Below are positions 8,834-53,533 of a stretch of 64,000 nt of DNA, in pieces. The stretch's first letter is position 1. Each line of letters starts with the position of its first letter. The notes under the pieces were generated by a model that was given only the letters and a program-made list of their open reading frames with translations, ran no database searches and was not told the DNA's origin. The translations under genes and the position numbers were made by a program. This stretch comes from an uncultured bacterium (GTDB taxonomy: Bacteria; JAGOEH01): assembly GCA_964632485.1 (NCBI GenBank), contig CAZWDO010000005.1, forward strand, positions 84,249 to 148,248, written 5' to 3'.

Positions 8834-9813
8834 GGATCGGTTTTACTTCAACCATCCCCGTAGAAATGATCTACGCCATCGATGCAACCCCCGTGGACCT
8901 CAACAACATTTTCATCACTCATTCTGAAGCGCCGGAACTGGTGGCGCAAGCAGAGGAAACGGGATTGCCCCGGAATGTATGCGCCTGGATCAAAGGGCTT
9001 TATATCGTCGGCAGCCGCTTACGATCGGTCGAAAAGATCGTGGCGGTCATGGAGGGAGATTGCAGTAATACGCGGGTTTTAATGGAACTCTTACGCGATG
9101 ACGGCATCGATACCATCCCCTTCACGTATCCGACAGAACACACGTATGAGCAGGTAAAAATAGCGCTGGCCAAATTTGCCGCGCAATTGAACGCCCTCCC
9201 GGCCCGGATACGGGAAGTCAAGCGCGCGCTCGATCATATTCGATGCAAACTGATTGAACTGGATCGGCTAACCTGGCAGGAAAATCGAATCAGCGGAGAG
9301 GAAAACCATTTTTTTCTGGTCAATGCCAGTGATTTTATGGGTAATCCTACCCAATTTGAACATCAATTAGATGAATTAATTTATAAAGCGGATCATCGCA
9401 ATCCGCGAACTCAACCGATACGGCTGGCCTTCCTGGGAGTGCCACCGATTTGCAGCGATCTTTACCAACAGATTGAACGCTTTGATGGCAACGTTGTTTT
9501 CAACGAAATCCAACGGCAATTTTCCATGCCGTTCCATACCGATGATATTGTCGAACAATATTACAGTTATACCTATCCCTATGATTTTAACTGGAGAATA
9601 GAAGCGATTATCCCCGAACTGAAAAAACGCGGAATCCATGGAATCATTCATTATGTCCAATCATTTTGCCATCGGCAGTTGGAGGATATTTTGCTAAGGC
9701 GCAAAATCAAGCTTCCGATTCTGACTCTGGAAGGCGAACTGCCCGGGCCGCTGGACGAACGGTCCAAAATCCGGCTGCAAGGGTTTATCCGTATGTTGAA
9801 AGATCAAATATGA
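8830..9813 (+). CDS. 2-hydroxyacyl-CoA dehydratase family (HgdB/FldB-like) Fe-S protein
   Basis: IGFTSTIPVE, NVCAWIKG, GDCSN, YVQSFCHR and LPILTLEGE motifs; GTGA overlap with the folE2 stop. Confidence 0.85.
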   Translation: MRIGFTSTIPVEMIYAIDATPVDLNNIFITHSEAPELVAQAEETGLPRNVCAWIKGLYIVGSRLRSVEKIVAVMEGDCSNTRVLMELLRDDGIDTIPFTYPTEHTYEQVKIALAKFAAQLNALPARIREVKRALDHIRCKLIELDRLTWQENRISGEENHFFLVNASDFMGNPTQFEHQLDELIYKADHRNPRTQPIRLAFLGVPPICSDLYQQIERFDGNVVFNEIQRQFSMPFHTDDIVEQYYSYTYPYDFNWRIEAIIPELKKRGIHGIIHYVQSFCHRQLEDILLRRKIKLPILTLEGELPGPLDERSKIRLQGFIRMLKDQI

Positions 9814-10574
9814 TGGTTCATGGGATTGATCTGGGAAGCCGCCAGGTAAAACTGATCAGCCGTTGCGCTGAAACGGGTTCCATTCAGAGACGACTGAAAT
9901 TCCACACCCTTGAATTTTACCGCCAGTACAGCCGCCATCAGGGGAATCAATTAGAAATCGACCTCAATGCGCTGGGTATCGAAAACGGCCCGATCGTTTC
10001 GACGGGTTACGGCCGCTTTCATATCCAGGTGGCGCATGCAGAAAATATTCCCGAACTGCAAGCCCATGTTTATGGAGCGATTGAACAAAGCGGGTTTAAA
10101 GATTTTCTCCTGGTTGATCTGGGAGGACAGGATAGCAAGATCATCCAGGTGGAAAACCGCGCCATGGTCGATTTCGCAATGAATGATAAATGCGCGGCTT
10201 CGACCGGGCGATTTCTGGAAAATATGGCGCAGGCCCTACAGCTTAGTCTGGAGGAGCTATCGGAATGTTATGAAAATCCCTGCGTTATCTCCAGCACCTG
10301 CGCGGTTTTCAGTGAAACGGAAAGCCTGTCGTTACTTTTCAATGGAACGCCGATCCGTGAAATCGCCGCCGGAATTAATCTCGCTCTTTTCAAACGTCTG
10401 ATGCCTATGATCGGACGTTTCAAATTTCCTTACCTGCTTCTCAGCGGAGGAGCCGCTCAATCGAAAGCCTTACACTATTTTTTCCAGCAAAAATACCCAG
10501 TGCCGGTTGAACTCCTCCCTGATCCGATATTCAACGGGGCTATTGGCTGCTGCGCTTATTACAATCGATCATAA
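9810..10574 (+). CDS. Acyl-CoA dehydratase activase (HgdC/BcrAD ASKHA ATPase, archerase)
   Basis: GIDLGS, STGYGR, DLGGQDSK, MNDKCAASTGRFLE and STCAVFSE motifs; ATGA overlap with the preceding gene. Confidence 0.92.
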   Translation: MMVHGIDLGSRQVKLISRCAETGSIQRRLKFHTLEFYRQYSRHQGNQLEIDLNALGIENGPIVSTGYGRFHIQVAHAENIPELQAHVYGAIEQSGFKDFLLVDLGGQDSKIIQVENRAMVDFAMNDKCAASTGRFLENMAQALQLSLEELSECYENPCVISSTCAVFSETESLSLLFNGTPIREIAAGINLALFKRLMPMIGRFKFPYLLLSGGAAQSKALHYFFQQKYPVPVELLPDPIFNGAIGCCAYYNRS

Positions 10575-10587
10575 AAAAGGAGTGAAA

Positions 10588-13272: not shown

Positions 13273-13295
13273 ATTAGATTATACAAAGGATTAAA
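13229..13295 (+). repeat. Direct repeat copy 1 (attL-like), 67 bp
   Basis: atggaaaagaaagctgtatccgcaaaatttgccttattcgctgaattagattatacaaaggattaaa; 64/67 identical to 53957-54023. Confidence 0.95.
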
Positions 13296-13434
13296 AGAGT
13301 GGAATCTTTGTCGGAGTACACTTTATCTCACAATCGAAGAGGCAATATAAGATTTTTCAGGCGATGTTTGGAATTGAGTGGATCGAAGTAATTTATTATC
13401 CGGATGGAGAAAATAAATATTGGCTTTGAGTTAA

Positions 13435-13566
13435 CCAGTATATAAAGATATGCCCAAATCGTTTACCAAAGGAATGAACCAAGAGTATAGTTGAGCTGAA
13501 ATCATTTTTAATCGTTTCTATATCATACAGATTCTCCATCGGACTGTCGATGAAGTCCGCCGAACC
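13435..13566 (+). pseudogene. ISL3-family transposase remnant
   Basis: Manual translation PVYKDMPKSFTKGMNQEYS*AEIIFNRFYIIQILHRTVDEVRRT follows the ISL3 pattern DMSxAF...AxIxFDRFH...AVDEVRR; internal TGA at 13492. Confidence 0.7.
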
Positions 13567-13663
13567 GTATACCGGCACGAATCCATAACCTCAATCCCCA
13601 CAATCTACCACTTAAATTGCCAAAGAGCTTTAAATTTATTTCCATAATTATTTAGTTTTTCAC

Positions 13664-13692
13664 TTGACAGTTGTCCCGATTTATCTTATATT
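13664..13692 (+). promoter_or_regulatory. sigma70-type promoter
   Basis: TTGACA-17bp-TATATT. Confidence 0.55.
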
Positions 13693-13736
13693 CTTGGAAG
13701 CGTCATTTTTAAATTATTCTATTAATTAAACTGATT

Positions 13737-14645
13737 ATGCAAGAAATAATGACAGATGAAATCAGCAAAATTGCTCTGGCTTGTTATGGAAAGACGCCGG
13801 GGATTTCTCGTTTTTACAGCGTGAACAATAGCGTATTTCTACTTAAATATGATAATGAAGATAAAGTTCTTAAAATTGAGCGCGATGGTGATTTACAATG
13901 GAAAATAAAGAATGAAATTGCAATGATTGCTCTTGCGCAGCAACAAGGCCTTCCAGTTCCCGTTATCGAACATATTGGCACTGATGGCAACATCATCCCA
14001 AATCACTGGTACATCATGAAACGTGCGGGATCATTGAATCTTCATGGTTGCTTTTTACATAAAAATGACAAAAATACCAGGGAGTTATACAGTGAATTCG
14101 GGAGGATTCTCGGTCGCATTCATCAGGTTACTTTACAACGCCAGGGTTACCTAAAAGCAGACCGCATCAATGAGTTTATTTTTGGAGAAGTTATTAATAA
14201 AAGGTTCGAACGATGCATTAGAAAACTTAGCGGACAATTGGCTAATAAAGAGATTCACAAGTTAACTAATATAATCGGAAGTTTCAAAGAGAGTAAACAA
14301 ACAAGATTGTGCCATAAAGATTTTGGACCATGGCATGCGATTATAGATAAGAATAAAATTGTCGCAATCATCGACTGGGAATTTGCCGAGGGTTCAGACG
14401 AAATTTATGATTTTGTTAAGTCTGAATTATTTCTATATATTTATTCTGGAAATCTTGAAGAGTTTAGAGAAGGATACTGTGAAATTCAGCCATTACCTCC
14501 TGATTTTGAATCGGTTGCTATGCCTTATCGAGTAATCGAAACCTTGAATTTGATGACATTTGTAAAAAATAATCAAAACTTGTTTTTTAAAATCAAGAAA
14601 GTCCTGGATAGCATCATCACCAGTAATGGGTTAGTTTGGAGATAA
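13737..14645 (+). CDS. Aminoglycoside phosphotransferase/choline kinase-like (APH family) protein
   Basis: VLKI lysine, LCHKDFGPWH (Brenner motif variant) and IIDWE. Confidence 0.8.
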   Translation: MQEIMTDEISKIALACYGKTPGISRFYSVNNSVFLLKYDNEDKVLKIERDGDLQWKIKNEIAMIALAQQQGLPVPVIEHIGTDGNIIPNHWYIMKRAGSLNLHGCFLHKNDKNTRELYSEFGRILGRIHQVTLQRQGYLKADRINEFIFGEVINKRFERCIRKLSGQLANKEIHKLTNIIGSFKESKQTRLCHKDFGPWHAIIDKNKIVAIIDWEFAEGSDEIYDFVKSELFLYIYSGNLEEFREGYCEIQPLPPDFESVAMPYRVIETLNLMTFVKNNQNLFFKIKKVLDSIITSNGLVWR

Positions 14646-14727
14646 TGATTAAATAATTAATGTTTTGTTTCAGATAAAAATAGAGAGTCGTGCTGAATTC
14701 ACTATAGACTGGGAAGAAGCTTCTTGC

Positions 14728-14832
14728 CTGGGGCTGTTCCAAACCAGGGGTAAGGCGGGGAACAGCCCCAGACGCCGCGCAAATCGCCCCTTCAATGGCA
14801 TGAGGGAGAAAACTTTTTTAGTTTTCTCCCTC
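14728..14832. repeat. Two perfect 13-bp inverted repeats
   Basis: ctggggctgttcc (14728-14740) / ggaacagccccag (14759-14771); gagggagaaaact (14802-14814) / agttttctccctc (14820-14832). Confidence 0.8.
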
Positions 14833-14878
14833 CAGAATGTATCTTCATGTATCAATTAGACCATAGAAAGGATGCTGT

Positions 14879-15043
14879 ATGGAGATTAAACGATACACTC
14901 CAGAAAAGAAGGCTCAAATTAACCGGGAAATCATACTTGAACATAAATCGGTCAGCCATGTAGCTATAGAATTCAATAGTACTCCAGCTACTATCTATAA
15001 GTGGCAGAAAACATTAATGGAAAAAGCAGTCGATCTATTCTGA
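14879..15043 (+). pseudogene. IS3-family transposase OrfA fragment (HTH), OrfB absent
   Basis: MEIKRYTPEKKAQINREIILEHKSVSHVAIEFNSTPATIYKWQKTLMEKAVDLF*, typical of the IS3 OrfA HTH. Confidence 0.7.
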
Positions 15044-15081
15044 ATAAATGACACTGAAGGACACCAATACTATAGGATAAT

Positions 15082-15951
15082 ATGGAACCCAAAATATCAA
15101 TTATAACTCCATCATTAAATTCAGCAAAATATATTGAAAACGCAATAAAAAGTGTTCTTGAACAAAATTATCAAAATATAGAGCATATTATTATGGATGG
15201 CGGATCCTCGGATGGTACACTTAGAATATTAAAGAAATACTCTCACCTTAAGTGGGTATCTGAAGCTGATTCTGGACAATCTAATGCAATGAATAAAGGA
15301 TTTTTAATTTCGACAGGAGAAATAATCGGTTATTTAAATTCAGATGATTATTATTTACCAGGCGCCTTTTCAGCCATTTTGCCATACTTTGAAAATAAAG
15401 AAAAATTTGTTGTTGGAAACATCAAAGTTGTAATGGATGATGGATCATTTTGGATCAATAATGCTCGCATAGGACATGAAGATATGTTAAAACACTGGGA
15501 ACCTGAAGCATTTTGTGTCAATTCTGTTGGATATTTTTACCATCGAGAAGTTCAGGAAAAAGTCGGAGGATTTAATGAATGCAATCATTTTGCTATGGAT
15601 TTAGAATTTTTATTATCAGCATCGAAGTATTTTAAATTTCATAAAATTGATTCATTATTAGGAGTATTTCGTTATATCACAGGTACAGTTACAAGCCAAA
15701 GTCAGAAATCAGAAAATGTTTGGACAAAAAAAAACTTTCAATTTATTGATCGCTTTTTGAATGGAATGCCTGAGGATTTTATAATTGATTTTGAAAAAAA
15801 GCGAGAACAAGGTTACTTATTACGAAAAAATTGGCAAGCCCATGAAAAAAACAAAGAAAAGAATTATCAAAAAAGATTCAACGGGAAAACAAAATGTAGT
15901 TGGATACGCTATGTAATTGAAAAAGCGAAAAAATTAAAAATATTATCTTGA
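15082..15951 (+). CDS. Glycosyltransferase family 2
   Basis: ISIITPSLN, DGGSSDGT and YLNSDD motifs. Confidence 0.92.
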   Translation: MEPKISIITPSLNSAKYIENAIKSVLEQNYQNIEHIIMDGGSSDGTLRILKKYSHLKWVSEADSGQSNAMNKGFLISTGEIIGYLNSDDYYLPGAFSAILPYFENKEKFVVGNIKVVMDDGSFWINNARIGHEDMLKHWEPEAFCVNSVGYFYHREVQEKVGGFNECNHFAMDLEFLLSASKYFKFHKIDSLLGVFRYITGTVTSQSQKSENVWTKKNFQFIDRFLNGMPEDFIIDFEKKREQGYLLRKNWQAHEKNKEKNYQKRFNGKTKCSWIRYVIEKAKKLKILS

Positions 15952-40830: not shown

Positions 40831-42228
40831 TTATGATATAAACACTTTCTGATTAAGGCTGACCAACCCGCCATTGTTGCGATTGTCTGAAATCACCCGG
40901 AATATGCATGCATCGACAATCCGGTTGACAATAATGCTTTCAGCGCCAGCAAATGTCCGCAAACCGATATTCAGGTAATAATTCTTACCACCAGTAAGAA
41001 GACAATCAAACAGCATTTTATATGTTACCACAGTGCCTTCCAATATTTGTTTTTCGATATATTTGTCTTTATCAGGATAAGCAAACCCTGCAATATTTTG
41101 GCCTTTCTCAGTTTTTATCGAATTTGTAAACTGAATAGCATCCAGCGTTACGTTGAAAATAACCTTGTATCGCAGATAATACTTTTCTCCATGAACCAGA
41201 ACATTCACACAGGTACCATCTTCAGTAAGTATTCTAATATCCGAAATACTAACGTCATAATTTCGGTATTCCACAACCGATTTAGAAACAAATTCAGGAA
41301 GGTAATATGGCTTTAACACACTGCCCAAGGCCGGTTTATTGATCAAATCCTCCCTTGTCAGAAAATCGTTCATTTCATTATCTATCTCAGTCTGAAGGAT
41401 TTCACCGGACATTTCATCAAAATTTTCCTTACGCGCAATATTGGAATTGATCTCTTTAATCTCCTCAATTATCGCTGATTGCTGCTCTTTACGAGAATAA
41501 AGCATCTTCTGATAATACATAGTCACCATTTTCGGAGGACCATTGAGAATGCATTCCCCTTTATCCAGCAATATTGCCCTTGTACAGAGTTGGTTTATAG
41601 AGTTTGCATCGTGGCTGGCAAAAAGTATGGTTTTCCCGCTCTTGAAAAACTCCTCCATGCGGGCGTAGCATTTCCGCCTAAAGAGATCATCACCTACTGC
41701 TAATACTTCATCCAATATTAAAATGTCCGGGTTGACATGAACTGATGCCGCAAAGGCTAATCTTGCTTTCATACCGCTTGAATATATTTTTAATGGTTGG
41801 TGAATAAAATCCCCAATGTTAGCAAACTGTATGATACTTTCAATTTGTTCATTAATCTTTTTTTTACCAACTCCTATGACTGAACAATAGAAAAAAATAT
41901 TTTCCAGACCCGTTAATTCTGGATTGAATCCAGAACCTAATTCCAACAAAGCAACCACATTACCGGATACTTCAAGCTTTCCTGAACTCGGTGTCAATAC
42001 TCCGGAAATGATCTTTAAAAGTGTGGATTTACCAGCGCCATTAGTTCCAATTATCCCTAAGATTTCACCTTTGTAAATATTAAGATTAATATTTTTTAAT
42101 GAAAAAAATTCTTTATGATATTTTCGTTTAAATGGATCAATTGATTCATAAAATCTATGCGATTTTTTAGAGAATAATTGATATTTTTTTGAAATCTGAT
42201 TTAATGAAATTACTATTTGTTTATCCAT
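40831..42228 (-). CDS. wzt: Polysaccharide ABC transporter ATPase Wzt with a C-terminal carbohydrate-binding domain
   Basis: GTNGAGKST, YSSGMKARLAF and LDEVLAVGD motifs; Wzt_C-like beta domain. Confidence 0.92.
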   Translation of the reverse strand: MDKQIVISLNQISKKYQLFSKKSHRFYESIDPFKRKYHKEFFSLKNINLNIYKGEILGIIGTNGAGKSTLLKIISGVLTPSSGKLEVSGNVVALLELGSGFNPELTGLENIFFYCSVIGVGKKKINEQIESIIQFANIGDFIHQPLKIYSSGMKARLAFAASVHVNPDILILDEVLAVGDDLFRRKCYARMEEFFKSGKTILFASHDANSINQLCTRAILLDKGECILNGPPKMVTMYYQKMLYSRKEQQSAIIEEIKEINSNIARKENFDEMSGEILQTEIDNEMNDFLTREDLINKPALGSVLKPYYLPEFVSKSVVEYRNYDVSISDIRILTEDGTCVNVLVHGEKYYLRYKVIFNVTLDAIQFTNSIKTEKGQNIAGFAYPDKDKYIEKQILEGTVVTYKMLFDCLLTGGKNYYLNIGLRTFAGAESIIVNRIVDACIFRVISDNRNNGGLVSLNQKVFIS

Positions 42229-42232
42229 TGAA

Positions 42233-43042
42233 TTAAATAACATCTGCAAAATGAGGTCGTAGTTTTGTAAAAACTTTTGTTCCAACAATTAGAAACACTA
42301 TAACCAGTGACCAAAAATAAATCAATAATATAGGTTCATTCCAAAAAGGATTAGAAAATAGCAAACTATCCCTATACCCATTTACAATATAAAACATAGG
42401 ATTATACTTTAAAATAGTTTGAAATTTTTTTGGAAGCATGAATATATTCCAAAATATTGGTGTTAAATAAAACATAATTCTGATGATGATATGTAGTATA
42501 TTAGATAAATCAGGAAAAAATAAGCTTGTAGATGAAATAAAAAGCGATAAACCTAATGTAAACAAAAACATTGAAAAAAAATAATAAATTAATTGCAACC
42601 AAAAAATATTTGGATGAAAACCATGAAATATTAATACTACTATTGTAATTACTAAAAATATCAAATGCATTATGCTTTCTGATATCATTTTAACCAGCGG
42701 TATGACACTTACTCTAAAGTTTACTTGTTTAATTAGATAGGAAAAATTTCTGATTGAACTACAATTTTGTGTGATCGAAATTTGAAAAAAAAGAAATGCA
42801 ATATATCCTGGTAACATATACGTAATAAAAGGAACTTCCAAATGTTTACCTGCTCTTAAGCCAAAACTAAAGATAAACCAAAAGACTATAATTGAGGCAA
42901 ACGGTTCTATTATTGCCCAAGTAAGTCCGAATTTGTTAGAAGCATATTTTTGTTTGAAATCTCGTTTTATCAGTTCAACAATCAAACCTCTATTATTCAT
43001 TAAATGATGAAAAAAAGTATAAAATTTTTTTAATAAAGCCAT
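42233..43042 (-). CDS. wzm: Polysaccharide ABC transporter permease Wzm
   Basis: RDFKQKY...GLTW, YLTPIFW, NPMFYIVNGYR and FADVI motifs. Confidence 0.92.
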   Translation of the reverse strand: MALLKKFYTFFHHLMNNRGLIVELIKRDFKQKYASNKFGLTWAIIEPFASIIVFWFIFSFGLRAGKHLEVPFITYMLPGYIAFLFFQISITQNCSSIRNFSYLIKQVNFRVSVIPLVKMISESIMHLIFLVITIVVLIFHGFHPNIFWLQLIYYFFSMFLFTLGLSLFISSTSLFFPDLSNILHIIIRIMFYLTPIFWNIFMLPKKFQTILKYNPMFYIVNGYRDSLLFSNPFWNEPILLIYFWSLVIVFLIVGTKVFTKLRPHFADVI

Positions 43043-43369: not shown

Positions 43370-45553
43370 TTATAGGGATAAAGCTTCTTCTATTTCAGTG
43401 AACTCTGTCTGAGTTTCATAACCGACATATCCAACATATTCTATTTCTGAAATCGGCTTTATTAGTTTAGATCTCAAAATCATACCGTTTATTGTCGCAG
43501 TTACTACTTGTTCCTTCAAATCAATTTCAAGTACAATATAAAAAATCCCGTTTGTATTTAAATCGACATACTTTTTAGTTTGTACTTTCACGACATTGCC
43601 GCCGAGCTGATACGTACGAGCGCCAATCCATACGCCTACTTCTATTGTCTTCCCAGCGCTTGTAAATGCCTGGATAAATCCATTACGTTTGCCTGTCAGT
43701 TGATGGGCTTTGAGCTTGACTTTAAAAACGGCTTTATCTGTATATTTTTTGTGTGTTTCTCTCATTGCCTGAAAATGAGTACTATCCGCTTTGAGAACAT
43801 AACCTATTCCACCGATTTCCATCTCTCCATTGAGCACTTCATATTGTTCATTTTTTTTTGTTTCAGATGTAGTTTGTTTAGTATACTTCAAACGTATCCG
43901 CTCCTCTGCCGTTGGGAGACCACCCCATAGAATATTCGATTGATGAATTCCTTTATTTTGTAAAGCTAATATTGTCAATTCATATTCTTTCATACTCACG
44001 CCGGAAAAAATTGGAAACAATGTGCCGGTTGTTTTATCTGCCTGTAATATTGTCCATGGGGCATCCATTGTTTCACCCCGCCATTGTAATGCATATTCAA
44101 ATTGCTGTAACTGGCCATTTTTTTTATCTATCCCAAAAAGAAAAACAGGTTGACTCATAGATAGCCCTATTTCAAAATAATTTTTATAATTAAAATACTC
44201 GGCTGACGGTGTATAAAAAAAACCACTAATATCCTTACGTTTTAAGGCATATTTTAATAAGCCACTTGATAACTTCCATTGATACTCTATATACTCCTTA
44301 TTATCAGCATTTGAAATTCCCTTTACTCCGAAAATAACAATTTGAGAATGGGGAGGAAATTCTTTTTTGGCAAGTTCATTCCTGATAATGGAGAAATCTA
44401 TATTTATTAGAGAGTACATTTTATCAAGATTGTAATACCTTAAAACACCAGAAAAAATGATTACGATAATAAATACAGGAATATGCAGCTTGAATTTAGT
44501 TCGAGAAAATGAATACAAAATTATATATATAGAAAATACAAAAATCGCGTTTAATCCAAACGAAGAAATATACACAAGTCGTGGGGTATAAAAAGGACTT
44601 ATAAAAATAAAGGCAAAAATATTAAAAACAGCCCAGGCTATAAAAAAAATATAAAGAAAAAGCCTTTGTGTAAAAAATGTATTATCGCTTTGTTTCAAAA
44701 ATAGAATAAAGCCGGTTGAAATCAATACAGAAAAAATTAATACAATATATTCAGGAGATATGTTTGGAAAAGGCAGGCTCCATTGAAAATAAAACAAAAA
44801 ACGATTAACTATTTCATTTAGGGGTATAAAGTAAACTTTTGCTGAGTTCCGCGGATTAATTATAGCGCGTATTAATTGTGGAATAGCAGTCAAAGTAAAT
44901 AATGACATCAGAAGAATACTTTTTCTAGCAAATTTTTTATATCCCCAAAATGCCAGACCAAAAGAAGGAAGTAAAAATAATGCCTGCTCCATGAGTTGCG
45001 TGGAAATAAAAAAGCACAGACTGGCCGCCGCTAACCTAATCCAGTTTTTTGAAGTTTCTTTTTCTAAATATTGAAACCCTATAATTAACGATACAAGCGC
45101 CGGTAAAAGCCCCCAGAGCACATACGACATATTAATTCCGGCAGGGATTTGCCTCTGCATTGGCAATATATTGGGAAGAACGGCCGCAGTAAACGCCGTC
45201 ATCCGGGAAAATCCGAATCTATTCTTTAGGAAATAATAAAAGCAACAGGATATGGGAACCATTAGAAAAACAGTATATAAAAAGCGGGCAAGATTCAGCG
45301 AATATACCATCAAATTCCATGCTAACCATTCTGTAAATGGACTTAATAAACTGAACTTCATCATCCACCAGGGAAATTTCCCATTTAAGACTTCGGTGTA
45401 CATGATCGGATCATCACCTAAAAGAATGTCAAGACCAAAAATGGCTTTGAGATTAAACAAAATTACCGTAAAGGCTATTCCCAGATAAACAAAACCAGAC
45501 TGAATACCCTCTTGAGATAATAAACGTTTTGCGAAACTTTCGCTTAATTTCAA
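43370..45553 (-). CDS. Multi-TM membrane protein (GT-C-like) with a periplasmic C-terminus
   Basis: GDD after TM1; about 11 TM segments; C-terminal domain paralogous to lipoprotein 29621. Confidence 0.55.
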   Translation of the reverse strand: MKLSESFAKRLLSQEGIQSGFVYLGIAFTVILFNLKAIFGLDILLGDDPIMYTEVLNGKFPWWMMKFSLLSPFTEWLAWNLMVYSLNLARFLYTVFLMVPISCCFYYFLKNRFGFSRMTAFTAAVLPNILPMQRQIPAGINMSYVLWGLLPALVSLIIGFQYLEKETSKNWIRLAAASLCFFISTQLMEQALFLLPSFGLAFWGYKKFARKSILLMSLFTLTAIPQLIRAIINPRNSAKVYFIPLNEIVNRFLFYFQWSLPFPNISPEYIVLIFSVLISTGFILFLKQSDNTFFTQRLFLYIFFIAWAVFNIFAFIFISPFYTPRLVYISSFGLNAIFVFSIYIILYSFSRTKFKLHIPVFIIVIIFSGVLRYYNLDKMYSLINIDFSIIRNELAKKEFPPHSQIVIFGVKGISNADNKEYIEYQWKLSSGLLKYALKRKDISGFFYTPSAEYFNYKNYFEIGLSMSQPVFLFGIDKKNGQLQQFEYALQWRGETMDAPWTILQADKTTGTLFPIFSGVSMKEYELTILALQNKGIHQSNILWGGLPTAEERIRLKYTKQTTSETKKNEQYEVLNGEMEIGGIGYVLKADSTHFQAMRETHKKYTDKAVFKVKLKAHQLTGKRNGFIQAFTSAGKTIEVGVWIGARTYQLGGNVVKVQTKKYVDLNTNGIFYIVLEIDLKEQVVTATINGMILRSKLIKPISEIEYVGYVGYETQTEFTEIEEALSL

Positions 45554-46636: not shown

Positions 46637-47323
46637 TTATTTTTTAGATCTTCGTTGATCTAAAACTGTTTTTATTACTTGCAGATAATCAGTTTGGGAT
46701 TGCTTTTCCCGATGGGTTAAATTGTCTCTATGAATTCGCCGTCTCATGACAATCTGATTGAGAATTCCAGATTTTAATTCAAGTTCCCGCGAGCGAGCAT
46801 ACCACGCAATAAATTCACCCATTTTTAGATCAGTCCTGAACAATCCAACCCGATCGAAAGACTTTCGTTTAATGAGCATTGCGCCAACGTGAACTCCGTT
46901 CATGACATGCCGATTATCAGGTAAAAAGGGATGCTGTTCCATCGGAATATCAGGACTAATGAACTGCTCAATTTGACCAAATACCATATCCTGATTCGGA
47001 TGATCCTCCAAATATCGGAATTGGGCGGATAATTTTCCCGGAGTCCAAATATCGTCAGCATCCAGAAATGCAAGCCAGTCACCCCGAGAATTTGTAACCC
47101 CAGTATTTCGCGCATATCCTGGTCCTTGATGGTCCTGCCTAAAAAAACGAACTGTCGAGTCGGATTCAATCCGATCCATTCCGCCATCAGTCGATCCATC
47201 ATCTACTACAATGATTTCAATCGGGAAATAATCTTGATTCTGAATGCTTAACAAGGCATCCATAACGTACTTTACCGCATTATATAGCGGAATAATCACA
47301 CTGATCAATGGACTCAACGACAA
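46637..47323 (-). CDS. Glycosyltransferase family 2
   Basis: VIIPLYN, DDGSTD, FLDADD and RRRIH motifs. Confidence 0.9.
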   Translation of the reverse strand: MSLSPLISVIIPLYNAVKYVMDALLSIQNQDYFPIEIIVVDDGSTDGGMDRIESDSTVRFFRQDHQGPGYARNTGVTNSRGDWLAFLDADDIWTPGKLSAQFRYLEDHPNQDMVFGQIEQFISPDIPMEQHPFLPDNRHVMNGVHVGAMLIKRKSFDRVGLFRTDLKMGEFIAWYARSRELELKSGILNQIVMRRRIHRDNLTHREKQSQTDYLQVIKTVLDQRRSKK

Positions 47324-48189
47324 TTAACCCGTGTAAAAAAAGTCTTATAAAATTCCGATAGGGAATCTTTAACAATATAGTAATATTGGCGAATTCTCAA
47401 GTTACGTTCCGGGCAGGCCAGCTTGATAAAACGAATTCGAATCAGAGGATTGGAATAATTCTTGTGTGAAAAATAACTGCGCAAGCGTTCAAAGTATGAT
47501 TTTCCCCTGAACCCACGGAAACCGGATGGTTCCTGATGAGTCCACACCTTTATCTCATCCGAGCACAACAAACTAAATCCCCGATAATGGGCGCGGATAG
47601 AAAACTCGAAATCTGCCTGGTAGTGAGGCAATCGCTCCGGATAAAAACCGCCCAGTTCCACGAAATCCCTGGCCTTAATCCATAATCCCCGCCCGGAAAG
47701 ACAATTGATCCGACAGACTGATTCAATATGATGGACAGGCTGATACAGTTTCAGTTTTTGCCAGTCTACATACCCCCCCATGTCTAAAGGTTGATTGGTC
47801 TCCAAATCATAACAGGCCGATTGAATCAGGGTCTTATCGCTATCTTTTATCAGATGATACCCCTTAAACAAATAATCCTTTTCAAAAACAACATCATCGT
47901 TGATTAAAAGAACGATATCATTTAGGATTTCATTTTCTCTTTTTTTCAGCCATTGATATCCATATTCCATGGCTCCCGACCACCACCAGTGATTTTGACC
48001 GGTATTACGGATAATTATGGTCTGATTCAGAGCTGATTTTACCATTTCAGCCGTTCCATCGATGGATGCATCATCCAGTAGCAATAACCGATAATCCGAG
48101 AAGCTTTGTTCGAGCAGTCTCTCCATAAAACGCTGTGTCAGACGAATCCGATTATGGACCGGCAGCAGGATATAAATTACGTGCCTCAT
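47314..48189 (-). CDS. Glycosyltransferase family 2
   Basis: LPVHNR, DDASIDGT, WWSG, INDD and PHYQAD motifs. Confidence 0.88.
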   Translation of the reverse strand: MRHVIYILLPVHNRIRLTQRFMERLLEQSFSDYRLLLLDDASIDGTAEMVKSALNQTIIIRNTGQNHWWWSGAMEYGYQWLKKRENEILNDIVLLINDDVVFEKDYLFKGYHLIKDSDKTLIQSACYDLETNQPLDMGGYVDWQKLKLYQPVHHIESVCRINCLSGRGLWIKARDFVELGGFYPERLPHYQADFEFSIRAHYRGFSLLCSDEIKVWTHQEPSGFRGFRGKSYFERLRSYFSHKNYSNPLIRIRFIKLACPERNLRIRQYYYIVKDSLSEFYKTFFTRVNCR

Positions 48190-48962
48190 TTAACCTGTTT
48201 TTTTCGATCGATAGACCGCTTCAATGCCAAAAGCAGCTCAGCATTGTTTTGGATATAATTCAAGGAGGTGTTCTGATCATGGACTCGCTTATGCAATAAT
48301 ACTTTTTCAACCAAATGACAATGCAGTTTCGCATCCTGTGCGCGCGCAAACCAATCCGCATCTGAAGCTATCGCCATAGCTGTATCAAAAAAACCGATGC
48401 GATTGAAAACATTCCTTTTAACCATCAGGGTTTCCATGAATTTCCCGATATGGTGAGAATTCAGTAACTCTTTTCGGAAAGCGGGTGAGGGTTTACTGTT
48501 CGAATCCATAAAATAATCGAACCAGGTGATACTATAATCCAGTTCGGAATCGTCCAGAAATTGCTGAAACTGAATTTGAAGCTTATCAGCCTCCCAGACA
48601 TCATCATGTGAGATAAACGCTAAATATTTAGCGGTTGCGGATTGGATACCCAGGTTATAGGCCTCAGAAATCCCTTGTCCTGGTTGAACTATCCAGGTAA
48701 CCCCGGGGAATGAACAGGCGATCGATGAAGTTGCGTCGGTGGAATGACCATCGACAACCAGAATTTCATGAGGCTGGGCATCCTGATTCTTGATGCTTTC
48801 AATGGCTTGCCGGATATAGCGTTCACCGTTTTTTACAACCAGTATTACGCTGACCGGACAATCTGATATCATAATTATTGAATTCTCTTTTTTCTCACGA
48901 AAATTTTGGGGATATGAAGGAATAACCGAAACGCTCGTTTGGCTGTTTTCCGTATTATCCAC
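48186..48962 (-). CDS. Glycosyltransferase family 2
   Basis: VVKNGERY, DGHSTD, SHDD and KRVH motifs; true start may be ~48875. Confidence 0.88.
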   Translation of the reverse strand: MDNTENSQTSVSVIPSYPQNFREKKENSIIMISDCPVSVILVVKNGERYIRQAIESIKNQDAQPHEILVVDGHSTDATSSIACSFPGVTWIVQPGQGISEAYNLGIQSATAKYLAFISHDDVWEADKLQIQFQQFLDDSELDYSITWFDYFMDSNSKPSPAFRKELLNSHHIGKFMETLMVKRNVFNRIGFFDTAMAIASDADWFARAQDAKLHCHLVEKVLLHKRVHDQNTSLNYIQNNAELLLALKRSIDRKKQVK

Positions 48963-50083
48963 ATGGCAAAGTTTAAAAAACTGGTCTGAGCGGACACATA
49001 ATAGGCGAACGTAAACAGTCCAAGTGGGAAAAAAGGCACTTTGCGCAGATGAGGATCATCCATCTGACCGCGATATCGAAAATAGCGGTTGATCATGTGC
49101 AAGGCATCTCCGAAAGAAGTTACCGGACGGGTTCTGATCTTCCACTCCCATAGCATATATCGCTTGACAGGAAGCCTGGAAAGCTTGTCCAGAAAAGCGA
49201 CCGGGATGTTTCTATAAAATGTCTCATACAAATAAGTCAATGATTTATAAAGAATCAGATTCAGGCTGTATTTTTGGGCTACATATACAATACGGTCCCA
49301 ATCGATAGTATCTCCCGATTTATCAATGATCATGATAGCATCCGCGATCCAGCGGACAGGAGGAACGACATTGCCGCTAATGCCATGGGCGCAGATATGG
49401 ATAATCTGATCGGAAGCATTCAGCGTCTTAGTTTTAATACCGAAGACGACCAGATCATCAGCGCCATTCCAGAAAAAATCATTCGCTTCCAATGTCAGGC
49501 ATTCATACATGGTATGCCAGTGAAGATCAACGTTCTGCTTGGCTGGATTGATAAATCCCCATGAATGTTGGATATTCAAGAAAGATTCCGATAGTCGTGA
49601 TTTAGATAAAATGACCGGATAAAAGCCATTTGTCCGCAGGAGATTAATTGCTTCCCGCCGATGCCGGATTGGTACCAGAATATCAAAATCCTGCATGGAA
49701 CGCAATCCCAAATCCTGATAGTAGCGCAATGCCAGGGCCGCGCCTTTCAGCACCAGGGTTTTAATTCCTTGATTTTCAAAAAGATGCAGAATATGCTTTG
49801 AGGTGATGAACAAAAAATTATTCTTGACCCAGGTCTGCTTGTAAATACCTTTCAGCTTTCCAAGTAAAGGGTCATTGATTCCATTCTTCTTGAGACTGTT
49901 GTACAGCAAGGGCAACAGCCGATATGAACCCGGATCAATATCGGTTTCAAAATTTACCGTTTTTTTCCAGTCATTGAAGGCATGAAACTGAGCATCGTTT
50001 TGCCCAAAGATCGCCCGCAGCAGCAGGAGTTGCTGATGAGAGGGGAAAGCGCCAGTCCGCTCGTATTTCAAAGTTTTGATCAT
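48875..50083 (-). CDS. Nucleotidyltransferase (NTP_transf_5 family)
   Basis: LVLKGAAL, RSMQDFDILV, VDLHWH and RWIADA motifs. Confidence 0.85.
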   Translation of the reverse strand: MIKTLKYERTGAFPSHQQLLLLRAIFGQNDAQFHAFNDWKKTVNFETDIDPGSYRLLPLLYNSLKKNGINDPLLGKLKGIYKQTWVKNNFLFITSKHILHLFENQGIKTLVLKGAALALRYYQDLGLRSMQDFDILVPIRHRREAINLLRTNGFYPVILSKSRLSESFLNIQHSWGFINPAKQNVDLHWHTMYECLTLEANDFFWNGADDLVVFGIKTKTLNASDQIIHICAHGISGNVVPPVRWIADAIMIIDKSGDTIDWDRIVYVAQKYSLNLILYKSLTYLYETFYRNIPVAFLDKLSRLPVKRYMLWEWKIRTRPVTSFGDALHMINRYFRYRGQMDDPHLRKVPFFPLGLFTFAYYVSAQTSFLNFAMWIIRKTAKRAFRLFLHIPKIFVRKKRIQ

Positions 50084-50086
50084 GCT

Positions 50087-51139
50087 TCACAATCCAATGA
50101 TAAAATTTCTAATGCTTGCTCCGATTTCACGGGGAGAATTGCTGAGATTGACCCAATATGATTTGACTTTTTTCACGAAATCCGCCATTATCACCAGTTC
50201 GGACTGACCGGCAAACGGCAACTGAAAGATGGTAGTAACAGCCAATGCCTGCAAGGTTTCGCTGGTACCCGCCCGCGAAAAAGTTGTCACATCCGAATGA
50301 GTGATGCGGGGCAATAAAATTGCTTTAACCGGCAGTTCTTTTACAAGTCGGGACGGGTATAATTTCTGGATGCTCAAAATAATTTTATCCTGATCCGACA
50401 CCGGATCGGGATTCAGTTCAGGAAAATTATCAAGTAACGGATATGAGAGATTGCGTTTCAGCTTGATGGAATTATAGACACTAAAGACCCTGGGTGGGTG
50501 ATCCGTGCGCAGCAGACAATAATCATCCCCCAGGTAGCTCATGTTTTCCATTACACACGACATAGCAGCGCTGGATTTTCCGCTGCCACCCTTGCCAACC
50601 AATAAAACCGCTTTACCTTCAACCCCGACTGCCGCCGCATGAACCATCTGGTATCCTCTCGGGTGAAGCCACCATTGGAAAATCGGCCGAAAAGGAGCTG
50701 CTTTCTCATAGCTGGGATATCGAGAGGGATTGGGGATCCATTGGATGGCCGATTGGGCAAGTTGATTGTAAATGCTCAACAATCCATTCTCCTGCAGGTA
50801 AGAAATTCTGCAGTTTTCATCCACAAAATCTTTGATTTCTCCGCGGGATTTATAATAATCGGAACTCCACGGCAATCTCCCAATTTTCATCCCCGTTGAA
50901 AACGAATCCCACAAATAGATGGTAAAATCCGCCGAAGTTTGGGTTCCAGTAGTCAACAAATGTTCCAAGGATGGAATAATCGATGACACAAGGGATTCAC
51001 CGGCAAAACAAAGCCTGATCGTAAAATCATGTATCCTCAACGTATAATCAATGGATTCCGAACCATTGTTAGTGGCTCGGAAATATTTATCTATTAATTG
51101 ATGATAGAATTCAATGGGAGAAATCATATTTAAAATCAT
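50087..51139 (-). CDS. HPr kinase-related P-loop kinase
   Basis: HAAAV, LLVGKGGSGKSS and YLGDDY motifs. Confidence 0.85.
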   Translation of the reverse strand: MILNMISPIEFYHQLIDKYFRATNNGSESIDYTLRIHDFTIRLCFAGESLVSSIIPSLEHLLTTGTQTSADFTIYLWDSFSTGMKIGRLPWSSDYYKSRGEIKDFVDENCRISYLQENGLLSIYNQLAQSAIQWIPNPSRYPSYEKAAPFRPIFQWWLHPRGYQMVHAAAVGVEGKAVLLVGKGGSGKSSAAMSCVMENMSYLGDDYCLLRTDHPPRVFSVYNSIKLKRNLSYPLLDNFPELNPDPVSDQDKIILSIQKLYPSRLVKELPVKAILLPRITHSDVTTFSRAGTSETLQALAVTTIFQLPFAGQSELVIMADFVKKVKSYWVNLSNSPREIGASIRNFIIGL

Positions 51140-51607
51140 TCAGTTTTGTTCAAGGGTCGAATTTGGCCACCCCTCTTCATTAACATCATGAATTGGATCC
51201 AACAATAAAAGATCCTGCATATCCGTATAGCGGTTCAGCTTTAAGCCATTCCATTTTGAGGGGTTATCAATTTCCAGTCCTTCAATGGCAGTTTTATACG
51301 AGATGGGACTAAAATTGACTTTATCCTCTGTAATTGATAGCAATCCTTCGCTGTGAAGAATTGCGAGAAAATCTAAAATTTCTTTTCGGATTTGTATGGA
51401 ATTTTCATTATAACGTTCAGTTATCAGACTGATCATCTGATCAACTGAACAATGAGAGTCAATCATCTTCCATAATGCAATTCCTAATCCTTCAATATTG
51501 TAATATACACCGCTCTCTAAATTAATAATGACGATTTCATTATCCATAACCTGATAGATCACTGAAGGACTATTAATCCTATAATTGCGCGGACTATTTT
51601 TTTCCAT
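51140..51607 (-). CDS. PqqD/RRE-family protein with a C-terminal peptide extension
   Basis: DNEIVIINLESGVYYNI...LWKMI...FLAILHSEGLL RRE pattern; tail RYTDMQDLLLLDPIHDVNEEGWP. Confidence 0.85.
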   Translation of the reverse strand: MEKNSPRNYRINSPSVIYQVMDNEIVIINLESGVYYNIEGLGIALWKMIDSHCSVDQMISLITERYNENSIQIRKEILDFLAILHSEGLLSITEDKVNFSPISYKTAIEGLEIDNPSKWNGLKLNRYTDMQDLLLLDPIHDVNEEGWPNSTLEQN

Positions 51608-51871
51608 AATCATTCCTTTAGGGATTAGTTATTTATAGCGCTCAGCTTCAGATGATTTTCATCATTTAAATTTATTGAATCAGTACCTGACCAACGCATG
51701 ATTCCCAATTACTACAAAGATCAAAATTATTCAACTGTTTACTGAAAATTAAGCAGGTATTTTCAAATGGCTTAAAAGCGCCAGTTTTCTGCCCTATTTC
51801 CACAATAAAAACTTCAAGAATTATTAATACCCCTTCAGCGCCAGAGGCGCTTCTCTGATAAAATTCAATCT

Positions 51872-53533
51872 TCATTTGTTAATCAGATTGTGTTCCAATT
51901 TTCGGATAATTGTTTCAATCTGAGGTTTCATCTCGGCCGGGCACTTTTCTATATACTTATTGAACCAAAAAAGGCTTTTATCATATTTTTTCTCCTGATA
52001 ATATGAAATAGCCAGAATATAGTTCCCATCAATTTCCTCAGGAACCATCCGTTTTAAACTGAAGATCAAACTCCTGGCTTCTTCAAATCGATTCTCTTTA
52101 AAATAAAGATAGGCCAGCTCCACATACGCCGGAGCAGTCGGGCGATAGGAACTAAAAACTGCTTTTTGAAACTCTCTCTTAGCTTCTTCGGTTTGTCCTT
52201 TTTTCATCAGGAGTTCGCCATAACGATATGTAAACCAGGAATTATTCGAACGCTCATTAATCTTGGCAATATCACCAAAAATCCAATAATAACCAGCTAT
52301 TAACACAACTATCCACAAAATATCCAAATATTTTTTATTAAAAATCAATCGATAACTGGAATAAACTGCATATCCACTGACAGGTACCAGAAAAGGTATA
52401 GTCGCCAATCGATAACGGGACGAAGGAATGGTCAGAATAAAACTCAGACTGAGCAAAATAAAGCATAACCCTATAAAGATAATAAACAGATTTACTTTTT
52501 GGGTTCGGACAAGCTGTATCATTCCAATCAGATAAAAAGCGCATAACAGCGCATAATCCAATCGCATCAGCTTAAGAATCCAGGAAAATGAGCGGAATTG
52601 ATAATAATCGACATTATCAGGTATTTCGTAGCCCCCCAGCCAATTAGCAATATCCGGGATATGACCCGCGATGATGTCTTTCAGAGTTCCCCTCAACAAG
52701 ATTTCCTTCCGCCCCTTCGGATTGTCATACAAAAACGTATCGCCATCAAAATTTTTGGTTTCACTCCAGGCTCGGGTGAGAAACTGTTTAGGATTTTCGA
52801 TTTTTTTCAAAACTCTAAACACTGACTGCTGATAATATCTTCCTCTAATAAGAAACGGCGCGGAAAAAATGACAAGCGCCAAAATAAAAGTTGAGGAAAT
52901 CAATACTCTTTTCTTGATTGACATTTTATATCTAAAAAAAAGAATCAAAAAAAAAATAAATGACAAAAGTAAAAGGGGAGCAAAGTTTATCCGATTCAAA
53001 ACAGCCAGGATATTGCTCATACTAAAAAAGAAAACATTTATTACCGAAAAACGTTTCATTAATCCATAAAATGAAACTATGATAGCGGTAGAGCAGAAAA
53101 CAGAAAAAAATTCGCGCAGAATTATCATCGCATACATCCAGACTGGACCGAACAGGATCAGAAGAGTGACGGCAATAAAGGAGACCGCTTTTATATGGAA
53201 TAAATCCAATGTAAGGGAGAAAATCATCATGCCCATAATTCCAAGTAATATAATATGAAAAACGAGGATGATCTCATATCTGGAATTAACTTTCAGCAAA
53301 AACGATATTATATCGGGATAAATACTTCGAGAACTGAAATCAGTCGGATTTGCAAACAGGCCATAATCCGCGTAGTGTTTCCCAGATTTATAAATATTCA
53401 CCATATCACATCCGTTTTCCAAATTAAAATCCAATAAATGGGTGTTATTCTTCAATTCAAAAAACAATCCAAATCCTATGACTAGACAGAGAATGAAAGT
53501 ATATATCTGATACTTATATTGCGTAAGTTTCAC
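51872..53533 (-). CDS. GT-C (ArnT/PMT-like) membrane glycosyltransferase with C-terminal TPRs
   Basis: Multi-TM; YP..., ILRE and RYRL motifs; TPR helices (YVELAYLY, LAISYYQ). Confidence 0.65.
   Translation of the reverse strand: MKLTQYKYQIYTFILCLVIGFGLFFELKNNTHLLDFNLENGCDMVNIYKSGKHYADYGLFANPTDFSSRSIYPDIISFLLKVNSRYEIILVFHIILLGIMGMMIFSLTLDLFHIKAVSFIAVTLLILFGPVWMYAMIILREFFSVFCSTAIIVSFYGLMKRFSVINVFFFSMSNILAVLNRINFAPLLLLSFIFFLILFFRYKMSIKKRVLISSTFILALVIFSAPFLIRGRYYQQSVFRVLKKIENPKQFLTRAWSETKNFDGDTFLYDNPKGRKEILLRGTLKDIIAGHIPDIANWLGGYEIPDNVDYYQFRSFSWILKLMRLDYALLCAFYLIGMIQLVRTQKVNLFIIFIGLCFILLSLSFILTIPSSRYRLATIPFLVPVSGYAVYSSYRLIFNKKYLDILWIVVLIAGYYWIFGDIAKINERSNNSWFTYRYGELLMKKGQTEEAKREFQKAVFSSYRPTAPAYVELAYLYFKENRFEEARSLIFSLKRMVPEEIDGNYILAISYYQEKKYDKSLFWFNKYIEKCPAEMKPQIETIIRKLEHNLINK

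Follow-up and report, generated by a model that had tools for sequence, protein, structure and literature searches.

A six-gene cassette on the minus strand of the window analysed here, a stretch of 64,000 nucleotides of contig CAZWDO010000005.1 (C5 in our numbering) from an uncultured bacterium, looks like an undescribed relative of the pathways that make phosphorylated ribosomal peptides. Its first gene encodes a protein, referred to below as the RRE-tail protein, in which a recognition element (RRE) of the kind used by peptides that are made on the ribosome and modified after translation (RiPPs) is fused to a C-terminal tail opening with a leader-like motif. The other genes encode an HPr-kinase-like protein, a nucleotidyltransferase-like protein of the NTP_transf_5 family and three family 2 glycosyltransferases (GT2s). 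An earlier, sequence-only reading had described the six as packed or overlapping genes inside a glycan locus, and open reading frame (ORF) calls together with Pfam and NCBIfam matches recovered all of them as stated, abutting or overlapping between 46637 and 51613. Our results suggest that the cassette, which is real, widely distributed and so far unannotated, is a variant of a kind of system described only recently, the LPP family, and that it is very probably independent of lasso enzymes and carries its leader in cis. Judged from sequence, its own additions are the fused leader-like tail, an invariant block that follows the motif, and GT2s as core genes.

Pfam PqqD covers residues 26-92 of the RRE-tail protein (E 3.3e-13), and against the NCBIfam model lasso_PqqD_Bac the domain scores 53.6 bits, under the cut-off of 80. 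Pfam, fold and profile matches agree on a winged-helix PqqD fold related to the B1 proteins of lasso peptide clusters. A Foldseek search of the PDB gave TbiB1 with its leader as the best match (5v1v, TM 0.88) and also returned TfuB1 with its leader, and the family profile matched TbiB1 (1.5e-17), PbaB1 (4.6e-14), TfuB1 (2e-7) and LppB (1.6e-6). A word-indexed search found 295 relatives of nearly the same length, aligned over about 90% of the protein at 30-44% identity, except for one at 68%. Conservation, in alignments of 25 and of 115 sequences, is moderate in the RRE domain, absent from the linker and highest of the whole protein in the tail. D131, L136-L138, D139, P140, H142, G148, W149 and P150 are invariant in both alignments, and M132 (112 of 115), D134 (103) and L135 (113) are nearly so in the larger one.

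Across 322 distinct tails the consensus is [F/Y/W]xxPx[L] followed by the almost invariant YTDMQDLLLLDPIHEVDExGWP, and conservation of the tail, which had been set as a check on the sequence-only reading, thus came out as near-invariance. Position 121 is F in 274 tails, Y in 36 and W in 7; position 124 is P in 316, L in 3 and V in 3; position 126 is hydrophobic in all 322 (L 285, I 13, F 11, V 10, M 3). After the motif come x-[K/R] and then [Y 258 / F 59]-[T 247 / S 39]-D-M-Q-D-L-L-L-L-D-P-[I/V]-H-[E/D]-V-D-E-x-G-W-P. The RREs of lasso and LPP systems bind a [Y/W]xxPx[L/V/I/F/A] leader motif (PMC13381572; PMC10368454). The first six tail positions have the aromatic-xxP-x-hydrophobic pattern of those leaders, and a leader function is predicted for them. 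The WNGLKL of the window protein had been taken for a degenerate leader, and the family motif, with P at the fourth position in 316 tails, bears this out: it is a rare form, having W in common with 7/322 tails and L for P with 3/322. Position 130 is T or S in 286 tails and E or D in 13, and 11 tails have no hydroxyl at either 129 or 130. In four loci (L010, L019, L022 and L081) the residue equivalent to T130 is E or D, a phosphate-mimicking kind of change, and the kinase is still present. No Pfam or NCBIfam model spans the tail, and the source annotation of the family is just 'PqqD family protein' or 'hypothetical protein'.

The tail is never convincingly found unfused, and its attachment to an RRE appears to be obligate. 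A profile of the tail alone, run against 1.84 billion cluster representatives, matched 2970 proteins at E<=0.001, of which 1436 reached E<=1e-10. Among the best 150 matches, 120 are proteins of 100-227 aa with the tail near the C-terminus and 30 are shorter than 100 aa. Word searches returned no tail match among proteins longer than 275 aa and a single one among proteins shorter than 86 aa, an 82-aa protein that begins within the last helix of the RRE. Twenty profile matches of 46-80 aa were inspected; many begin within that helix or the linker, and they look like cut genes. Of the 10 shortest matches, seven are single-member clusters, and the remaining three group at 90% with one full-length protein of 135-157 aa. 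On these search results a stand-alone or otherwise fused tail was rejected as a regular form; a rare true split form is possible.

Among species-representative genomes, a search with the pattern DLLLLDP[IV]H, confirmed by tblastn, found the RRE-tail protein in 388. The carriers include Chloroflexota, Cyanobacteria, Acidobacteriota, Nitrospirota and Desulfobacterota-type 'delta' lineages, as well as Bacteroidota, Ignavibacteriota, Verrucomicrobiota, Actinomycetota, Chlamydiota and others. Neither of the two genomes examined from the same family or order as the window's genome has the protein. The last 586 residues of RpoB from the window's genome give matches of just 59-61% to MAGs (metagenome-assembled genomes) of Calditrichales, Ignavibacteriales, Fibrobacteraceae and Solibacter.

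The best 80 loci from these 388 genomes were compared, and genes were tallied in the 51 of them with at least 9 kb downstream. The RRE-tail gene leads the set in nearly all 80 loci; behind it, on the same strand, lie the kinase, two to six small GT2s and NTP_transf_5, in an order that varies. Of the 51 loci, 46 have the kinase and 42 have NTP_transf_5; at least one GT2 is found in 50/51 and at least two in 44/51, and 39/51 have kinase, NTP_transf_5 and GT2 together. No locus has a lasso cyclase. Building a tail profile and asking whether the tail keeps company with these enzymes or with lasso genes had been suggested as a check, and the counts come down on the side of the tailoring enzymes. 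The core set, an RRE, an HprK-like kinase and an NTP transferase without a cyclase, is that of the LPP family. Relatives of the most divergent GT2 of the window, (b) in Table 1, occur in 33/80 loci, and natural kinase-GT2 or kinase-GT2-GT2 fusions of 598-839 aa are found at L032:11652-13445, L024:14391-16274, L059:11660-14134 and L053:7549-10065. An MsbA-like exporter (ABC_membrane + ABC_tran, ~569 aa) is present in 31/80 loci; the window cassette has none and is followed instead by Wzm/Wzt. Other recurrent neighbours in the 80 loci are GT1/GT4 enzymes, an epimerase (13) and a sulfotransferase (9).

The claim that the window has no lasso cyclase, peptidase or free precursor withstood profile, tblastn and small-ORF scans. 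In the related loci, phmmer with the genome's own cyclase found no relative in any of 80, and B2 was found in one of 80. By tblastn, the window stretch gave no match to the genome's own B2 or cyclase; the cyclase matched contig C31 and two asparagine-synthase-like sequences on C6 and C2. Transglut_core3 is present in the window's genome on C31 only. In 45 cassette-bearing genomes it lies above the Pfam cut-off in 20, mostly elsewhere in the genome, and has no match in 22, these being MAGs that may be incomplete; among control genomes it is above the cut-off in 1 of 14. Both the missing cyclase and these 22 genomes agree with a cassette that has no lasso enzymes of its own, as the sequence-only reading had it.

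Nor was a conserved free precursor found among 1273 small ORFs (20-110 aa) clustered from the 80 loci, where the largest cross-locus families comprise three loci each and consist of close relatives or cut GT2 genes. ORFs with a leader motif are not enriched on the operon strand (35/623, against 33/650 antisense), and between 44 and 56 kb of the window no small ORF on that strand has a plausibly placed [YWF]xxPx[LVIFA]. A 67-aa ORF at 51672-51875 was considered as a precursor and discarded, having no family match and no leader motif. The archaeal-type signal peptidase I model TIGR02228 scores above its cut-off in 6/45 cassette-bearing genomes; the four matches that were fetched lie on contigs other than the cassette contigs, and none of the 5059 ORFs of the 80 loci matches those four, a search for SpI-like peptidases that did not extend to the window's own genome.

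Where lasso-type gene sets adjoin the cassette, they bring their own tail-less short PqqD and their own kinase. In Oscillatoria sp. PCC 10802 (L168:4695-16565) a complete lasso locus lies 10-25 kb upstream of the RRE-tail cassette. It contains two cyclases and two kinases together with B1, B2, three YxxPxL precursors and an ABC exporter, and its RRE and kinases are separate from those of the cassette. L059 and L063 have an extra set made up of an NTP_transf_5, a PqqD of 88 aa, a kinase and a B2-like gene; a cyclase was not found there.

A cognate lasso cluster elsewhere in the genome would count against the reading of a self-contained cassette, and lasso genes are indeed present. Contig C31 carries a true lasso cluster (~9320-15161; L001:1-2004) with a B2 of 178 aa (lasso_biosyn_B2, 90 bits), a 624-aa cyclase and two precursor-like ORFs, one of 64 aa and the other of 62 aa, whose leaders have WNCPVL and WNRPVL. 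It also has two HprK-like kinases and a sulfotransferase, and no PqqD/B1 gene nearby. The cores of the two precursors begin with unusual residues if cleavage obeys the Thr-x rule. The genome contains four further PqqD matches. One of these, a tail-less protein of 95 aa on C4 (L082:1489-1776; 200673-204138), scores 74.8 bits against lasso_PqqD_Bac, compared with 53.6 for the window RRE. Because the C31 cluster has two kinases of its own and the C4 PqqD fits the B1 model better, the window cassette is not evidently cognate to C31; lasso genes elsewhere are thus a fact, and their pairing with the cassette is not evident. The window tail motif and the C31 leaders begin alike with W-N, which may be a lead for cross-talk between them. 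The C4 PqqD adjoins paralogues of NTP_transf_5 and of a membrane protein with tetratricopeptide repeats (TPRs) that is encoded upstream of the cassette in the window, so that these three families lie side by side at two places in the genome. On contig C2 (173122-174964; L084/L085), two adjacent PqqD-like ORFs of 99 and 138 aa stand beside a 368-aa protein with the radical-SAM-like Cys motif CNMSCKHC, and may be another RiPP-type cluster.

The catalytic motifs of the cassette enzymes are intact by alignment. Across 46 kinase sequences H167, G182, G185, G187, K188 and D206 never vary, and at least 90% retain S189 and D205. This is the motif of HprK-like RiPP peptide kinases, with a spacing identical to that of BsfK (H148-G163-G166-G168-K169-S170-D186-D187; PMC10368454), a peptide kinase whose phosphorylation of BsfA on Ser3 is greatly enhanced by the RRE BsfB1 (PMC10368454). 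The nucleotidyltransferase-like protein matches PF14907 and has the metal-binding DxD (D132-x-D134), each of the two aspartates being kept in 41/47 relatives and D248 in 44/47. PsmN, of the same NTP_transf_5 family, is required for the addition of one or two hexoses to the phosphate on the C-terminal Ser of pseudomycoidin, and its D134A/D136A form is inactive; the same paper leaves room for PsmN making the substrate of a host glycosyltransferase (PMC6993621). Of 147 relatives, 146-147 retain D46, D90 and D91 of GT2 (c).

An AlphaFold2 model of the window protein, made with a 115-row alignment, gives the RRE a predicted confidence (pLDDT) of 80-95, with strands at 10-13, 18-22, 26-31 and 36-41 and three helices. 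The linker is at ~61-62, block 121-130 rises to 87 and contains a DSSP strand (125-129), and the remaining tail falls to 43-62. The AlphaFold model of the canonical Oscillatoria member, whose motif is FEPPKL, has the same profile, with the linker at 52-53, the motif block at 89 and a strand at 131-134. Since a DSSP strand needs a partner and all other strands are in the RRE, the two models would dock the motif on the RRE in cis. They support what the sequence-only reading had proposed, a leader bound by its own RRE, with the motif as a confidently predicted strand.

A model of the kinase (46 rows) in complex with the RRE-tail protein (115 rows) reached an ipSAE of 0.86, against 0.00 for the best of three controls. 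That value is reached by 58/80 solved complexes and 2/110 mismatched pairs, counts which are only rough with alignments of our own. Between runs at least 59% of contacts agree, and the partner pLDDT is at least 71. In the modelled interface, kinase helices 291-323 lie on RRE residues 15-39, joined by kinase residues 98-99 and 183 and tail residues 129, 131-132 and 135-137. Residue 183 is within the P-loop (G182-S189), and the model puts tail residues 129-137 next to that loop. A search of solved structures with the kinase profile found no kinase-RRE complex, only HPrK P-loop regions, and as none of the solved kinase-RRE complexes is similar to the kinase in sequence, we judge it unlikely that the score reflects a memorised structure. 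The model supports binding of the kinase to the RRE-tail protein. The contact between kinase residue 183 and the tail was not accepted as proof of a phospho-acceptor, because the output gives interface residues and not pairs.

Taken together, these results lead us to a tentative proposal: the cassette may be a stand-alone offshoot of the module of RRE, HprK-like kinase and NTP_transf_5 that tailors phospho-lasso peptides and LPPs, one in which the RRE-tail protein is itself modified. Considered as a whole chain, the proposal is plausible and somewhat short of an even chance. The [F/Y/W]xxPxL motif would fold back into the RRE's own leader groove, and the kinase would dock its C-terminal helices on the RRE beta-sheet, as in the models. 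Y129-T130-D-M-Q-D-L-L-L might then be held at the kinase P-loop and T130 phosphorylated; by analogy with PsmN, NTP_transf_5 could add a sugar to the phosphate, and the small GT2s could extend it. Such steps would make the RRE-tail protein its own substrate, or else a carrier for a phospho-glycan, and the near-invariant DLLLLDPIH...GWP block would be the handle recognised by each enzyme in turn. A more specific form, which we regard as rather unlikely, has the RRE-tail protein as a self-recognising protein primer: the tail would be phosphorylated, NTP_transf_5 would start a phospho-sugar linkage and the GT2 array would build an oligosaccharide, which would mean that RiPP machinery serves a conserved, housekeeping-like purpose in many phyla instead of making a variable natural product. 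Its product, to be thought of with the same reserve, would be a protein-borne phosphoglycan, either kept on the protein or passed to the cell envelope.

Several observations weigh against self-modification. Cis docking is derived from pLDDT and DSSP; the window protein's own motif lacks the proline (L124); and all steps past kinase docking are drawn by analogy. T130 is the sole nearby hydroxyl residue and yet is not invariant, and the invariant residues of the tail (D, L, P, H, G, W) would be unusual kinase acceptors. No peptidase is conserved in the cassette across the 80 loci, though an exporter is frequent. An MsbA-like exporter would not be expected to move a folded protein of 17 kDa. The register differs too: counted from the papers, the phospho-Ser of BsfA and LppA lies 13-14 residues past the last hydrophobic residue of the motif, whereas T130 comes 4 residues after L126. 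Finally, RiPP cores vary (PMC13381572), whereas the 'core' of the cassette is invariant across phyla.

It is doubtful, but must be taken seriously, that the tail is instead a built-in pseudo-leader or docking handle and not a substrate, the enzymes acting on a glycan or lipid-linked intermediate that belongs to the surrounding polysaccharide locus, or on a leaderless peptide. In the detailed form of this account, to which we give the same limited credence, the cis motif would keep an unstable RRE folded and the kinase active, and the acidic-hydrophobic block would recruit NTP_transf_5 and the GT2s. Known engineered fusions of leader and enzyme, active on leaderless substrates, speak for it. 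So do the invariance of the tail across phyla, which suits a multi-partner interface better than a RiPP core, the obligate fusion, the lack of a peptidase in the cassette, the existence of kinase-GT2 fusions and a hydroxyl at position 130 that some members can dispense with. The cassette here lies within a Wzm/Wzt glycan operon, and LPP and paeninodin clusters are also located in capsule loci; moreover, LppB is insoluble without its peptide, and PbaB1 is fully folded only on leader binding (PMC13381572). On the other hand, no glycan-phosphorylating member of the kinase family was found in the papers examined, and all characterised relatives phosphorylate peptides. The complex model sets the tail residues beside the P-loop and not on a distant surface, no priming (polyprenyl-phosphate) transferase is conserved in the cassette across the 80 loci, and why a peptide-binding domain should be retained would be left unexplained.

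The C31 cluster invites a different account, in which the RRE-tail protein is the missing B1 of that cluster, the kinase, nucleotidyltransferase and GT2s act in trans, and the tail competes for or regulates leader binding. C31 does have B2, two precursors, a cyclase, two kinases and a sulfotransferase with no nearby PqqD, and its WNCPVL and WNRPVL leaders recall the WNGLKL of the window, a W start being rare in the family (7/322). The frequency of Transglut_core3 above the cut-off in cassette genomes, 20/45 against 1/14 controls, points the same way. We nevertheless consider this improbable, in view of the 22/45 cassette genomes (MAGs, possibly incomplete) with no Transglut_core3 match, of the short PqqD and kinase that adjacent lasso-type sets carry for themselves (Oscillatoria L168; L059, L063), of the better fit of the tail-less C4 PqqD to the lasso B1 model (74.8 vs 53.6 bits) and of the two kinases that C31 already has. 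Ordinary polysaccharide biosynthesis, with the kinase and nucleotidyltransferase making a sugar-1-phosphate and then an NDP-sugar for the GT2s and the PqqD-like protein as a bystander, strikes us as hardly credible. It would accord with the glycan-operon setting, with the several GT2s, epimerases and sulfotransferases of related loci, and with the role of PsmN as a supplier of substrate for a host glycosyltransferase that its authors left possible (PMC6993621). Against it stand the first position of the RRE-tail gene in nearly all 80 loci and its translational coupling to the kinase here, the peptide-kinase motif of the kinase and the high-confidence complex in which it is modelled with the RRE; sugar activation, besides, would need no invariant 22-residue peptide.

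The features of the cassette and its operon are collected in Table 1.

Table 1. Features of the cassette and of the surrounding operon (positions in the window)
Feature	Position	Strand	Description and evidence
RRE-tail protein	51140..51613	(-)	157 aa (155 aa from second ATG, 51607); PqqD/RRE + linker + leader-like motif + acidic-hydrophobic tail
RRE (winged-helix) domain, residues 10-95	51329..51586	(-)	AlphaFold block, pLDDT 80-95
Variable linker, residues 96-120	51254..51328	(-)	No conserved columns
Leader-like motif W121-N-G-L-K-L126	51236..51253	(-)	Rare variant of the family [F/Y/W]xxPx[L]; leader function predicted
Near-invariant tail block Y129-T-D-M-Q-D-L-L-L-L-D-P-I-H-D-V-N-E-E-G-W-P150	51164..51229	(-)	Family alignments
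HPr-kinase-like protein, 350 aa; putative peptide kinase	50087..51139	(-)	Weak Hpr_kinase_C, E 7.5e-5; HprK_rel_A, 6e-8; both below cut-off
NTP_transf_5 nucleotidyltransferase-like protein, 402 aa (PsmN/LppN/BsfN type)	48875..50083	(-)	Pfam PF14907, E 3.5e-40
Small soluble GT2 (a)	48186..48962	(-)	Glycos_transf_2, E 1.6e-23
GT2 (b), most divergent of the three	47314..48189	(-)	Glycos_transf_2, E 5.4e-14
Small soluble GT2 (c)	46637..47323	(-)	Glycos_transf_2, E 2.1e-30
Upstream multi-pass membrane protein, 553 aa, C-terminal TPRs	51872..53533	(-)	Pfam: TPRs only
Wzm (ABC2_membrane), 42233-43042, and Wzt (ABC_tran + Wzt_C, E 8.5e-21), 40831-42288	40831..43042	(-)	Same operon; glycan exporter

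The stop of the RRE-tail gene touches the start of the kinase gene, and the overlap of the kinase and nucleotidyltransferase genes is given as 4 bases. The start of GT2 (a) is uncertain: its GTG ORF shares 88 bases with the end of the nucleotidyltransferase gene, and residue 38 is the first of the Pfam domain. The same-strand operon extends both ways beyond the six genes. Upstream, the structure model of the membrane/TPR protein resembles, in an Atlas comparison, clusters with PMT_2 and TPRs (GT-C, protein-mannosyltransferase-like) at TM 0.77-0.80; a relative occurs in just 1/80 related loci, and the protein is possibly linked to the cassette in this lineage only. Downstream lie a GDP-fucose-synthase-like gene, an ORF of 727 aa, Wzm, Wzt with Wzt_C, FkbM methyltransferases, sulfotransferases and a GT2/GT10 protein. 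The 727-aa ORF (43370-45553), between the fucose-synthase-like gene and Wzm, has no Pfam or NCBIfam match at E<=0.01. The placement of the cassette inside a glycan locus is upheld by this operon, in which an ABC-2 permease is accompanied by an ATPase with a Wzt_C glycan-binding domain, as in loci for glycans exported by ABC transporters of the Wzm/Wzt type. From 43042 down to 30244, Wzm/Wzt are followed by two FkbM methyltransferases, three sulfotransferase-domain proteins and a 935-aa GT10/GT2 protein, and this region looks like one for an ABC-transporter-dependent glycan with methyl or sulfate end caps. G+C content is 41-44% in the genes from the kinase to GT2 (c), 35% in the RRE gene and 25% in Wzm, against a genome mean of 43.8%; as a test of horizontal transfer of the cassette, composition was set aside because it gives no clear signal.

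RREs are thought of as adapters for a separately made precursor. Here the adapter and the part that it catches are one polypeptide, and the stretch that is caught keeps nearly every letter from cyanobacteria to Chloroflexota, Acidobacteriota, Nitrospirota and Chlamydiota. Should the tail be modified, the cassette would represent a new kind of protein phospho-glycosylation built from lasso-peptide parts, and would provide a handle on the role of NTP_transf_5, which the pseudomycoidin, Bsf and LPP papers leave open (PMC6993621, PMC10368454, PMC13381572). If the tail is just a pseudo-leader, it would be a natural counterpart of engineered leader-enzyme fusions. Either way, a large family, of 2970 cluster representatives by the tail profile, has gone without specific annotation. 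The literature searched, which did not include subscription journals or the LPP supplements, yielded no account of a leader-fused RRE or of such a tail.

Of the systems already known, the LPP family (Popov et al., Nat Commun 2026, PMC13381572) comes closest. It is a non-lasso RiPP family of Bacillota with LppA, LppB, LppK, LppN, LppS and LppD, whose peptides are phosphorylated on Ser3 and whose clusters lie in capsule loci, as paeninodin clusters do. A non-lasso peptide system of RRE, kinase and nucleotidyltransferase inside capsule loci is thus already published. The cassette shares with it the aromatic-xxP-x-hydrophobic leader motif and the setting in glycosyltransferase-rich polysaccharide loci. 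It differs in having neither an SpI-like peptidase (LppS) nor a free precursor, two defining LPP features, and in having its leader-like motif fused to the RRE, whereas the LPP precursor is separate. The sequence after the motif is invariant in the cassette and shares just the first six positions of the LPP pattern YxxPxVLxHQxIxFETxxS, the usual first residue of the motif being F here and Y in LPPs. Two or more small GT2s are core genes of the cassette, and its RRE profile matches LppB (1.6e-6) more weakly than it does the lasso B1s. LPPs are stated to be restricted to Bacillota (PMC13381572), whereas the cassette occurs in many phyla outside Bacillota.

The sequence-only reading had named RRE, kinase and NTP_transf_5 as the tailoring set of both pseudomycoidin and paeninodin. 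This stands for pseudomycoidin and fails for paeninodin, whose cluster is described as having no psmN-like nucleotidyltransferase gene (PMC6993621), so that the full trio holds for pseudomycoidin, Bsf and LPP and not for paeninodin. PsmB1/PsmK/PsmN (PMC6993621) and BsfB1/BsfK/BsfN (PMC10368454) belong to the same three protein families as the cassette proteins; unlike pseudomycoidin and Bsf, the cassette has no B2 peptidase, cyclase or precursor gene. Outside lasso clusters, a PqqD-like protein and an HprK-like kinase also occur together in HprK-related kinase A/PqqD pairs and in the SynChlorMet cassette (TIGR04352, TIGR04248/04249), for which the proteins of our cassette score far below the curated cut-offs (32 bits vs 200; 24 vs 100). 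The best RRE matches in both fold and sequence are the lasso B1s with a leader (TbiB1-TbiA 5v1v/5v1u, TfuB1 6jx3, PbaB1 9x90), which bind a leader through a motif of this type. The leader in their structures is a chain of its own, whereas the cassette RRE has the motif in the same polypeptide, 25-35 residues after the domain. The tail-less B1-type PqqDs that were fetched lack its 62-residue extension (residues 96-157).

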